A stretch of DNA of 64,000 nt, taken from the NCBI GenBank assembly GCA_964446685.1, contig CAYUPO010000003.1:39183-103182 (forward strand), given 5' to 3'. The first letter of the stretch is position 1, and every line of letters starts with the position of its first letter. Below, piece by piece: positions 27,434 through 28,426 of the stretch. The position numbers and the translations under genes are program-made. The notes below the pieces were generated by a model. The model did no database searches. It was not told where the DNA came from and worked only from the letters and a program-made list of their open reading frames with translations. This DNA is from an uncultured Gammaproteobacteria bacterium (GTDB taxonomy: Bacteria > Patescibacteriota > Microgenomatia > Daviesbacterales > UBA10151).

Positions 27434-28426
27434 TTAACTTCTAAAAGGAAGGTTATTCCACCATTTCTTTGGTGAAGCAGGTTGGGTCATTTGTTTATTT
27501 AGGAGATATATTTGCTTCGCTTTTTGGGCTAATTCTTCAGCGGTAAATGGATTAAGCGGCTTTTTCCATCTTTCTGGGATGGCATCAATGCCGTAATGAG
27601 CTCCAGCCAAAGCACCGGCCACAGTCGCCTGTGAATCAGCATCTCCACCAAGATTAACAGCAAATACGACACTGTCTTCAAAATTATCATGATTCATTAA
27701 GGCATTTAAAGCGATATTAAAACTTTCAAAAACATATCCGCCACCTGGATAGACATCCTGATAAAACTCCCCATTTAAAGCTTGATTGACCATAAATACT
27801 GCAGTGTCATCATCTTTAAACTTTTGTACGAGGTTTCCTACCGCTTCATCTTTTGGTGTACCACCGGCTAAATCCCCCACCAGTTCTGAGGTCATTCGAC
27901 AAGCTAAACGACATTCAGGATGAGCATGAGTCATGGCTGACACTTCAGAGGAAGCCTACGACATTTTTTTACTATCACCACGAAACATCAAACCAAATGG
28001 ATGGGTTCTCATAATTGAACCATTTGGGGCTGTGTTTACTTTATTAAGTAATTCATATCCAGATTGCCTATAATCCATTCCCTGAGCAATATATAATAAA
28101 GCGTTATGTGTGGTTCCACCAATATCTTTGGGTTTGCCTCTCATCCACTTTACGAAACCGTTGGCTATGTCAGCTGGATCATAGCCATTTTTGTTAATAA
28201 AACTATCGATCACTGCCATCGACATGTCTGTATCATCAGTAGTTTGACCAACTCTCCAGTTAAATACCCCACCTCCTACCATCTCTTTTAAGGGACCGTT
28301 GTATTTGGCTGCAATTTGATCTGGAGTAAAAAATTCAGCCGGAGCACCAAGTGCGTCACCAACTGCTGCACCAACTAGGCAACCTTGGTACCGCTTAATG
28401 ATCTGGTTTTCGGGAGAACGGAACAT
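27434..28426 (-). pseudogene. ADP-ribosylglycohydrolase (ARH/DraG family) interrupted by one in-frame TAG (plus-strand coordinates 27956..27958)
   Basis: The N-terminal half carries 'GCLVGAAVGDALGAPAEF'. The C-terminal half carries 'NLGGDADSQATVAGALAGAHYGIDAIPERW'. The two ORFs are in the same frame, separated only by TAG GCT TCC TCT GAA GTG. Confidence 0.55.

Follow-up and report, generated by a model that had tools for sequence, protein, structure and literature searches.

An ADP-ribosylglycohydrolase (ARH) gene which directly follows a giant gene encoding an ADP-ribosyltransferase (ART) domain, and which is interrupted by a single in-frame TAG, raises two linked questions, namely whether the neighboring genes form a toxin/antidote pair and what the TAG has done to the supposed antidote. 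The locus lies in a 64,000-nucleotide stretch of DNA (hereafter the window, meaning the whole of the stretch that was analyzed) from a bacterium of the Microgenomates group of the CPR, a placement based on alanine racemase homologs of about 50% identity that bear the names Daviesbacteria or Microgenomates. The window also contains a 23S rRNA with approximately 1 kb of extra sequence, in which a homing-endonuclease ORF was looked for and none was found. The reading that we consider probable is that the locus represents one more toxin/antidote pair of a type already described, here in a CPR bacterium, the ARH of which has been inactivated by a recent single-nucleotide change.

The hydrolase and the giant gene

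The hydrolase gene occupies 27434..28426, as the earlier note on this DNA had given it, with the correction that it is encoded on the minus strand, where the reverse complement reads as 330 codons with one internal stop. It comprises the following parts:

27959..28426, minus strand: ARH N-terminal fragment, codons 1-156 (PF03747 match and alignment A1)
27956..27958, minus strand: in-frame TAG at ARH codon 157, where all the other samples of the species have CAG (Gln)
27434..27955, minus strand: ARH C-terminal fragment, codons 158-330 and the TAA stop (PF03747 match and alignment A1)

The first half contains GCLVGAAVGDALG and the second half GGDADSQATVAGALAGA...IPERW, so that the peptides previously quoted from this gene are both present, and the halves share one reading frame in which they are separated by the TAG at 27956..27958 (minus strand; "cta" on the plus strand). 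The N-terminal half matches PF03747 with E=5e-40 over model positions 1-142 and the C-terminal half with E=6e-29 over positions 147-287, while the joined translation matches positions 1-287 of 287 with E=3.9e-75 and 253.6 bits, the cut-off of the model being 26.2 bits. Because the matches of the halves adjoin and join, the two ORFs are consecutive pieces of one domain, as the earlier note had expected.

The metal-site motifs of the ADP-ribosylglycohydrolases are present in the ARH, with their residues split over the two fragments. The N-terminal fragment holds the metal/ribose-site residues E31, D64/D65/D67 and D101, and the other half of the active site, GGDADSQ (D262 and D264), lies in the C-terminal fragment. 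All of these residues are invariant in the 17 ARH orthologs of alignment A1, and the motifs in question (the E in GDALGxxxE, TDDTD, DIG and GGDxD[ST]) align with the same motifs in Tri1 and DraG. These two proteins also provide the nearest solved structures, with Tri1 (6DRE) at E=1.8e-36 followed by DraG (2WOC) at 1.4e-34. The ARH scores below the cut-offs of the corresponding NCBIfam equivalogs, with 166.7 bits for Tri1 (NF041672; cut-off 490) and 184.8 bits for DraG (TIGR02662; cut-off 337). The match to NF041672 covers profile positions 63-356 only, and the alignment with Tri1 spans Tri1 residues 64-359, the Pfam domain of the ARH beginning at its residue 15. A search of genome contigs with a profile derived from the ARH alignment recovered only relatives of at most 43% identity, from Chloroflexi, Actinobacteria and others, and yielded no synteny that could be used.

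The gene upstream of the ARH encodes a protein of exceptional length, of which the following portions concern us here:

28464..42932, minus strand: giant gene, 4822 aa (ORF and translation)
30606..30833, minus strand: Fic domain core, aa 4034-4109, with the motif HPYGDVNGRLSR (PF02661)
29406..30218, minus strand: R-S-E ADP-ribosyltransferase domain, aa 4239-4503 (motifs, profile, AlphaFold and Foldseek)
28467..29405, minus strand: C-terminal region past the ART, about 313-319 aa (alignment)

A hydrophobic, signal-like segment is located at the N-terminus of the giant protein, which also contains Cys-rich repeats and has the Fic and ART domains near its C-terminus. The Fic domain is the sole Pfam domain found in it (PF02661, E=3e-10 with the whole giant protein and E=3e-12 with a sub-fragment). 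Pfam searches of the protein detected no RHS, LXG, WXG or filamentous haemagglutinin trafficking domains, and no known pre-toxin domain was detected in it. The ART is not at the extreme C-terminus; the region past it has no Pfam or NCBIfam match and is conserved in the locus L007 and in a 597-aa protein of L004.

The description of the giant gene as ART-bearing proved to be correct, though the domain at aa 4239-4503 is missed by Pfam, in which its best match, to a Scabin-like model, lies below the cut-off (E=0.11 and 12.9 bits against 27). NCBIfam returned nothing for the domain, a single-sequence phmmer search of the PDB with this region gave only a chance match to thioredoxin reductase, and a word-indexed protein search gave zero matches. 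The domain was resolved by an exhaustive search of representative proteins, a profile built from the matches of that search, and structure prediction. The catalytic candidates are R4275 (in YRGG), S4366 (in SPYASTG, the Ser-Thr-Ser motif) and E4428/E4430 (in EQE, the Glu-x-Glu motif), and the R, the S and the E-x-E are invariant in 24 homologs. When the profile was compared with the PDB the toxin TreX emerged as the best match (E=0.055). The AlphaFold model of the domain (pLDDT 89.2, pTM 0.89) was used in a Foldseek search of the PDB, in which ART toxins account for every one of the best 50 matches listed. Cholera toxin A1 comes first (4.5e-5), followed by TreX/TreTu, LT, pertussis S1, PltA, pierisin and MTX, with modest TM-scores of 0.35-0.62 when normalized by target.

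Between the window and the locus L002 the ART alleles show a dS of about 0.9 and a dN/dS of 0.12, pointing to purifying selection. Strains differ from one another in the toxin-bearing portion of the giant gene, where the variation takes the form of allelic blocks, and the ARH does not co-vary with the toxin allele. The module combining Fic and ART is rare, with 35 relatives among 1.84 billion representative proteins.

Pairing of the hydrolase with giant effector genes

The spacer between the two genes is 37 nt long, rather than the 40 nt reported earlier, and within it, upstream of the ARH, sits a promoter-like site:

28434..28462, minus strand: sigma-70-type promoter-like site, TTGACT-17 nt-TATAAT, with 11/12 consensus matches

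The TTG and the TATAAT show no variation among six divergent loci (alignment A3), and a conserved promoter motif precedes the ARH. The ATG of the ARH lies 7 nt past the -10 hexamer, which implies a leaderless mRNA, presumably initiated at this promoter independently of the giant gene.

The linkage of the two genes extends beyond the window, in that seven divergent lineages have the ARH placed after a giant, or at least large, effector gene. An ART-bearing giant gene precedes it in the window, L004/5, L007, L091 and L099, the downstream genes of which differ, and the ART is directly upstream in all five lineages that have an ARH of at least 58% identity or the same gene order. Taken together, the R-S-E domain, the match of the ARH to Tri1 and the synteny across lineages argue for the toxin/immunity relationship that the earlier note had put forward. 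In the giant, probably exported protein an R-S-E (cholera-toxin-like) ADP-ribosyltransferase domain comes after a Fic domain, and the next gene would encode a cytoplasmic DraG/Tri1-like ADP-ribosyl(arginine) hydrolase, which most likely protects the producer by stripping ADP-ribose added by the ART from the cell's own proteins. The enzymatic activities of both domains, arginine as the target residue and the immunity role of the ARH are predictions from these relationships.

A comparison with previously described systems places the locus more closely. With the DraT-DraG system, in which Arg-ADP-ribosylation of dinitrogenase reductase serves regulation, the ARH shares the hydrolase fold and the metal-site residues of DraG; however, the window has no DraT or nitrogenase context, and the neighbor of the ARH is a secreted-type giant effector and not a regulator. 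The comparison with Tre1-Tri1 made in the earlier note stands (6DRE, as above). In that pair, a T6SS system of Serratia proteamaculans, the gene of an R-S-E ART likewise has that of a PF03747 hydrolase directly after it in the same orientation, and this order, with the ARH 37 nt downstream of the ART-bearing gene in the window, recurs in L004/5, L007, L091 and L099. Unlike Tre1, which is a small T6SS effector, the ART of the window is a domain in a 4822-aa Sec-type giant protein, stands in tandem with Fic, is not C-terminal and matches no Pfam or NCBIfam model. The ARH in turn lacks the approximately 60-residue N-terminal extension with which Tri1 plugs the active site of the toxin, and hence any protection by the ARH would be purely enzymatic, which fits with a constant hydrolase beside a varying toxin allele. 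Through its enzymatic arm, Tri1 undoes the ADP-ribosylation of arginine and can protect from non-cognate ARTs as well (PMC11606950; PMC8120803). The second parallel drawn earlier, with DarT-DarG, is a loose one because DarG, which is listed among the macrodomains (PMC8120803), is not a PF03747 hydrolase.

The same family pairing, PF03747 beside an R-S-E ART, is seen in the systems with Imm-ADP-RGHD or Imm-ARG (Zhang et al. 2012). Imm-ARG (PF03747) was described as conferring immunity enzymatically and as occurring strictly together with R-S-E ART toxins, and Imm-ARG and Tox-ART-RSE were reported from Proteobacteria, Firmicutes and Acidobacteria (PMC3482391). The window locus differs from these in its presence in the CPR, in being without a recognized trafficking domain and in having a further 319-aa domain after the toxin. 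It may be a polymorphic toxin system, in which a variable toxin domain would form the C-terminal tip of a large secreted protein and the immunity gene would come next; a downstream immunity-type gene and an allelic toxin block are present, yet 319 aa follow the ART. The Rhs-associated TreX-TriX and TreTu-TriTu pairs of Xenorhabdus bovienii (8S2M, 8S2N and 9GCO) have the same R-S-ExE active site, and TreX/TreTu rank with the solved structures that come nearest to the ART (profile E=0.055; fold E~1e-4 among the best 50 listed). TriX, a small non-enzymatic protein without a hydrolase fold, acts by occluding the active site (PMC11606950), whereas the neighbor of the ART in the window belongs to an enzyme family.

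An alternative to the antidote role is that the ARH is a general or differently partnered ADP-ribose-processing enzyme which travels with giant effector genes. It might then reverse the modification introduced by another domain or regulate the effector in a DraG-like manner, and its loss would be harmless. This proposal draws on ARH orthologs of about 50% identity which follow large genes without a match to the ART profile, encoding a PRTase-CE domain in L089 and a protein kinase in L093, and which suggest that the partner of the ARH may not be an ART specifically. In the five lineages delimited above by ARH identity or gene order, by contrast, the ART is immediately upstream. No ARH is present within about 6 kb of one stand-alone Fic-ART homolog (L100), which also speaks for the alternative; in another such protein (L088) the sequence ends right after the gene and is uninformative on a downstream ARH. 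The natural null allele beside a functional-looking ART allele can be read in the same sense, as can the failure of the hydrolase to co-vary with the toxin allele, although co-variation with the toxin is not expected of an enzymatic antidote (PMC11606950). PF03747 immunity genes are, moreover, reported to be strictly tied to R-S-E ARTs (PMC3482391), and an ART immunity protein, Tri1, is the best solved relative of the ARH. On balance, we regard the alternative as rather unlikely and retain the antidote role as the preferred interpretation of the ARH.

Origin of the TAG at codon 157

The TAG stems from one SNP at window position 27958, a C->T change on the coding strand which converts CAG (Gln) to TAG. 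It is a singleton: six other sequencing runs of the same species, ERR8482639/38 (L002 and L003) and SRR21621036/38/40/47 (P0299), carry CAG at this codon. Among the loci compared, L002/L003 and L095-L098 show this CAG. The ARH of the window is hence not an uninterrupted frame, whereas the alleles P0001 and P0299 from these six runs are intact. P0299 is identical to the window ARH translation except for Q157, and no further lesions are found in the window ARH relative to it; L002 and L003 differ from the window ARH at codons 157 and 170 only. The comparison of longer segments gives a similar picture, in that L098 shows a single difference from the window, at 27958, and L095, which shares the ART allele of the window, is identical to it from 26654 to 33920 (7.3 kb) except at positions 32489 and 27958. 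An old, decaying pseudogene was considered and rejected, as a single base separates the window ARH from the intact P0299. The column of codon 157 in alignment A1 is variable, with Gln or Lys being commonest among the orthologs.

Among the explanations offered earlier for the TAG, recent inactivation fits these observations best, given a single C->T change set against six samples with CAG. A single, very recent C->T transition in this genome would have turned codon 157 from CAG into TAG. Since each of the two fragments holds only part of the active site, the window ARH is most likely a fresh, strain-specific loss-of-function allele.

A sequencing error, also raised in the earlier note, is made less likely by the presence of the TAG base in two assemblies, the NCBI contig and a separate Logan assembly. 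These contigs are 100% identical over 3420 bp and may share reads or derive from the same run, so that the agreement of two different assembly pipelines on the base has to be read with this in view. A consensus base-call or assembly error, with the ARH intact in the real organism, would account for a lone base within otherwise identical sequence, for the restriction of the TAG to this sample and for the biologically awkward combination of a null antidote with an intact toxin. However, consensus-level substitution errors are rare with short reads, and few natural nonsense mutations are commoner than the C->T change from CAG to TAG; an error accordingly appears decidedly unlikely. The awkwardness itself deserves attention, for if the antidote is essential a null allele beside an apparently intact toxin should be counter-selected. 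Its occurrence would be easier to understand if the base were an error or the allele a minority variant, if another gene elsewhere gave protection, or if the cell could dispense with the antidote.

The earlier suggestion that the TAG is recoded or subject to programmed read-through has to be abandoned. With the standard code, coding sequence makes up 90% of the window, the long ORFs of which comprise 18,267 codons, including 414 CAG and 396 CAA. The earlier note had called for a search for in-frame TAG in other genes of the genome; within the window this identified ARH codon 157 as the only instance among these approximately 18,000 long-ORF codons, with none in the 4822-codon neighbor. TAG terminates five other ORFs of the window, in which read-through would add 0-30 codons as opposed to 173 at the ARH, and there is no tRNA-CUA suppressor among the three tRNAs of the window. 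The six other samples are without the TAG, which is therefore not a conserved feature. It is true that the sister alleles have CAG (Gln), and that Gln is the amino acid used by TAG-recoded phage genomes; further, bacterial near-cognate tRNA-Gln can allow low-level UAG read-through, which would restore the wild-type protein. Nevertheless, a TAG that is read as sense (e.g. Gln, code-15-like) or through programmed read-through, yielding a full-length hydrolase by design, is extremely improbable. Pyrrolysine at this position was likewise rejected in view of the Gln codon (CAG) that the sister alleles have here.

It is also conceivable that two fragments, of 156 aa and, after a restart, of 166-169 aa, are both made and reassemble into an active enzyme. 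In-frame starts occur at GTG 27943 and ATG 27934, 4 and 7 codons past the TAG, but neither is preceded by a Shine-Dalgarno-like sequence. The 166-aa product is annotated by gene callers, and the interruption lies between conserved blocks, at a column in which the orthologs vary; yet the gene is split in no other lineage, and a split that is one SNP old cannot have been selected for. With the split unique to this sample and the restart codons lacking a ribosome-binding site, a designed two-piece ARH was rejected, and an active enzyme assembled from the two fragments seems highly improbable. Recent loss of function hence continues to be the favored explanation of the TAG.

Implications for CPR bacteria and the toxin family

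A toxin/antidote pair consisting of an R-S-E ART and an ADP-ribosylhydrolase was reportedly demonstrated in 2018. It had been predicted in 2012 (PMC3482391). On the best-supported reading the importance of the interrupted allele is limited, a one-base nonsense variant in one metagenome being ordinary population noise. Of possible interest to specialists is that CPR bacteria, whose host interactions are poorly understood, carry an R-S-E ART/ARH system inside giant genes with a toxin block that recombines between strains. The Fic-fused ART, in addition, constitutes a rare family unrecognized by current domain libraries, and the ARH has a conserved, apparently leaderless promoter of its own, points which specialists may likewise find of interest.

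A bolder reading, which we hold to be unlikely, is that giant exported multi-effectors of the Microgenomates group carry a rare module, in which Fic is combined with an unmodelled R-S-E ART family, and are hard-wired to a Tri1-like but plug-less hydrolase which has its own conserved leaderless promoter and which the producer does not need. The null allele beside an ART under purifying selection would then indicate that the producer can do without the hydrolase. If this is true, the target of the effector may be a host or prey cell and not kin, and the hydrolase may have a non-immunity role, such as resetting leaky self-modification, or may process a different ADP-ribose or phosphoribosyl adduct, as the association with PRTase-CE hints. 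If the null allele of the ARH is real and fixed in its population, it would represent a natural knock-out with which to ask whether the antidote is needed.

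The interrupted ADP-ribosylhydrolase gene

The hydrolase (ARH) and the giant gene preceding it lie on the same strand, as the earlier note had it, and are separated by a spacer of 37 nt rather than 40 nt. Translation of the minus strand across the ARH (27434..28426) yields 330 codons with one internal stop, "cta" on the plus strand at 27956..27958 and TAG on the coding strand. This is the only stop within the 330 codons, confirming that a single in-frame TAG separates the two halves, and both peptides quoted in the earlier note are found in the translation. In the mechanical ORF list the halves appear as two abutting ORFs in a common frame.

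Features of the hydrolase locus
28464..42932, minus strand: giant gene, 4822 aa, 37-nt spacer to the ARH
28434..28462, minus strand: promoter motif TTGACT-17-TATAAT in the 37-nt spacer ahead of the ARH
27956..28426, minus strand: N-terminal ORF of the ARH, 156 aa
27434..27943, minus strand: C-terminal ORF of the ARH, 169 aa from a GTG start

The first half matches positions 1-142 of the Pfam model ADP_ribosyl_GH (PF03747; E=5e-40), the second half positions 147-287 (E=6e-29), and the joined sequence positions 1-287 (E=3.9e-75). These matches are consecutive, and therefore the two ORFs are pieces of one domain, as had been supposed. Of the active-site residues, E31, D64/65/67 and D101 sit in the first fragment and D262/D264 in the second; given this division, neither fragment alone should be active. 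Nothing was found in favor of a designed split of the enzyme, as no ribosome-binding site precedes the restart codons, and neither the protein search nor the ortholog alignment revealed a split version in other lineages.

With the joined ARH sequence as query, a protein search recovered an intact 330-aa allele (P0001) with 99% identity, encoded on contigs from runs ERR8482639 and ERR8482638 with the same gene order as the window. The ARH on these contigs shows only 2 base differences from the window, with CAG (Gln) instead of TAG at codon 157, and CGT instead of CCT at codon 170. A second intact allele (P0299; runs SRR21621036, 38, 40 and 47) differs from the window translation solely in Q157. 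Two contigs of the same species from other sequencing runs were compared at the DNA level: L095 is identical to the window across 26654-33920 save two bases, 32489 and 27958, a common stretch of 7.3 kb that takes in the Fic domain, the same ADP-ribosyltransferase (ART) allele and the ARH, while in L098 position 27958 is the only difference. The TAG, found only in the NCBI contig of the window and in a 100%-identical contig from SRR12762304 in the separate Logan assembly collection, is absent from codon 157 in six other samples. The surrounding haplotype is otherwise identical, so the TAG amounts to a singleton C->T transition: one base, in one sample, interrupts an otherwise intact gene.

Three explanations of the TAG had been put forward earlier, namely recent inactivation, read-through or recoding, and sequencing error. 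A very recent nonsense mutation, giving a fresh loss-of-function allele, is favored over a consensus error, the less likely alternative, because two assembly pipelines agree on the base; the two TAG-carrying assemblies may, however, share reads. Recoding of TAG as a sense codon is rejected. Long ORFs read in the standard code make up 90% of the window, excluding the 23S rRNA, with 414 CAG and 396 CAA among their 18,267 codons, and all three stop codons are employed. Five other ORFs of the window terminate with TAG, with read-through extensions of 0-30 codons as against 173 at the ARH, and no in-frame TAG occurs in the 4822-codon giant gene. The search for a suppressor tRNA, as far as the window extends, returned three tRNAs only, namely Ala, Ile and Cys. 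Furthermore, the six samples without the TAG indicate that it is not a conserved feature, and the Gln codon of the sister alleles excludes pyrrolysine at codon 157. Low-level near-cognate read-through of UAG by tRNA-Gln would restore the wild-type ARH protein.

The promoter motif in the spacer matches the sigma-70 consensus at 11 of 12 positions. Its TTG and TATAAT elements are invariant in six loci (the window and the related loci L004, L007, L089, L091 and L099), the ARH proteins of which are only 50-67% identical, and in four of the six the -10 hexamer lies 6-8 nt ahead of the ATG. The conserved motif and this short distance suggest that the ARH has its own promoter and a conserved leaderless transcript, an arrangement that would fit an antidote made constitutively.

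The ART domain of the giant protein

The only Pfam domain in the giant protein is Fic (aa 4034-4109, motif HPYGDVNGRLSR). Just downstream, aa 4239-4503 (window 29406..30218) contain YRGG, SPYASTG and GEQEVLIPGG, recognized by eye; searches with this region as a single sequence were uninformative. An exhaustive HMMER search of 1.84 billion representative proteins recovered only 35 relatives at E<1e-3, most of which are 550-980 aa long with a Fic domain preceding the region. Among the columns invariant in 24 aligned relatives are the YRG arginine, one serine of S-T-S and both Glu of E-x-E, and the profile from these 24 ranks the Rhs ART toxin TreX first among PDB sequences, with a borderline E-value (E=0.055). 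The AlphaFold2 model built from the alignment is confident (pLDDT 89.2, pTM 0.89), and the best 50 Foldseek PDB matches listed are ADP-ribosylating toxins without exception, including cholera toxin A1 (4.5e-5), TreX/TreTu, heat-labile enterotoxin, pertussis S1, PltA, pierisin and MTX. The TM-scores are modest, which makes this a divergent member of the fold. We conclude that this region is an R-S-E type ART covered by no curated sequence model (Pfam or NCBIfam). The description of the giant gene as ART-bearing is thus upheld by the invariant R, S and E-x-E residues, the model and its fold matches; Pfam misses the domain.

The Fic and ART tandem (window 29406..31232, aa ~3900-4503) recurs in stand-alone proteins of 550-980 aa (P0122-P0155) and at the ends of other giant proteins. 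In L004 (1..9954) and L005 (1..3181) the giant gene terminates near the equivalent of window aa 4026, the Fic core (aa ~4027-4150) is absent, and the ART and C-terminal domain are encoded by a separate 597-aa gene ahead of the ARH, implying that the effector end of the giant gene is modular.

Host and other features of the window

The placement of the host as a CPR bacterium of the Microgenomates group rests on the relatives of its alanine racemase, which are named Daviesbacteria or Microgenomates and share about 50% identity. Enlarged rRNA genes that lie apart from one another are characteristic of CPR bacteria. The 23S rRNA here is likewise enlarged and unlinked, and this, like the many proteins without a Pfam match, is consistent with such a host.

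Other features
7321..11258, minus strand: 23S rRNA, 3938 nt against a 2925-position model
45823..46794, minus strand: phosphoglycerate kinase (PGK) ORF, only 323 aa
12117..13937 and 46978..48114, minus strand: cohesin-domain proteins

The 23S rRNA contains ~1 kb of extra sequence, in which no endonuclease-like ORF was found. A 5S gene lies 4 kb from the 23S, with protein genes between them (rRNA/tRNA features at 3276..3392 and 11808..11880), and no 16S gene adjoins the tRNA-Ala. Against the 379-position Pfam model the PGK ORF gives two separate matches, of which the best spans model positions 6-233; the gene may be shortened or rearranged. Dockerin-domain proteins occur in related loci (L089 19798..20655; L099 1372..2088), and together with the cohesin domains they suggest that these CPR genomes encode a surface assembly of the cohesin-dockerin type.

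Linkage, probable allele exchange and the toxin/antidote reading

Genes flanking the ARH in related loci (identity to the query ARH where available)
L004/L005: 65%; upstream a giant gene, then a 597-aa protein with this ART; downstream GAPDH
L007: 67%; upstream a giant gene with Fic and this ART; downstream the contig end
L091: 58%; upstream a giant gene with this ART; downstream a PIN gene
L099: upstream a 5508-aa giant gene carrying PP2C, Fic and, at the C-terminus, this ART, then a 78-aa gene; downstream GAPDH
L089: ~50%; upstream a 3829-aa gene with PRTase-CE and no ART-profile match; downstream different genes
L093: ~50%; upstream a 1989-aa gene with a protein kinase domain and no ART-profile match; downstream different genes

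In L004/L005, L007, L091 and L099 the ARH keeps company with the giant gene although the downstream genes vary. In L089 and L093 it adjoins large genes without this ART, and no ARH was found within about 6 kb of the stand-alone Fic-ART protein of L100. Hence, the ARH is strongly linked to giant effector genes, and its linkage to this one ART is good, with exceptions. The PRTase-CE domain of L089 (1..9347; Pfam E=8e-7), and in L093 (1069..7038) a similar "DD..SGSQM" PRPP-loop-like motif, recognized only by eye, beside the protein kinase domain, hint that the ARH may partner with other ribose-phosphate chemistry.

Comparison with L002, from another run of the same species, revealed no differences across 32000-38429 and strong divergence across 29000-31500, the Fic/ART region. 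The ART block has 44 substitutions in 262 residues (dS ~0.9, dN/dS 0.12) and the GAPDH block (26400..27400) has 121 mismatches, whereas the ARH between them has only 2 differences. L095 carries the ART allele of the window, yet shows 80% identity further upstream, in the middle of the giant gene (window 36565..38531). Such sharply bounded divergent blocks between strains otherwise identical over kilobases suggest either mosaicism through recombination or chimeric assembly of the metagenomes. Given the low dN/dS of the diverged ART block and the near-identity of the ARH, strains appear to swap the toxin region in the form of functional alleles and to keep the hydrolase constant, as expected if protection is enzymatic with relaxed specificity. 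Relaxed specificity has been reported for the hydrolase arm of Tri1 (PMC11606950).

Among solved structures the ARH has its best match in Tri1 (6DRE, E=1.8e-36), which confers immunity to the ART toxin Tre1, and its next in DraG. The ARH scores below the cut-offs of both equivalog models (Tri1, 166.7 bits against 490; DraG, 184.8 bits against 337), so that it belongs to neither equivalog, just as the ART belongs to no curated family; it also lacks the N-terminal ~60 residues with which Tri1 plugs the toxin active site. Of the known pairs invoked in the earlier note, Tre1-Tri1 is the closer, and the comparison with DarT-DarG is loose, DarG being a macrodomain. PF03747 proteins (Imm-ADP-RGHD/Imm-ARG) were described as the only immunity protein of polymorphic toxin systems that is an enzyme, in strict association with R-S-E ART toxins (Zhang et al. 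2012, PMC3482391), a principle later proved by Tre1-Tri1 (PMC8120803, PMC11606950), and the present locus would work in like manner. We infer a toxin/antidote pair, a reading for which the identity of the domains, synteny and precedent give good support. The pairing of an ART toxin with a PF03747 hydrolase is already known, and this locus adds a further member, with the residual puzzle of a null antidote beside a toxin allele that looks functional.
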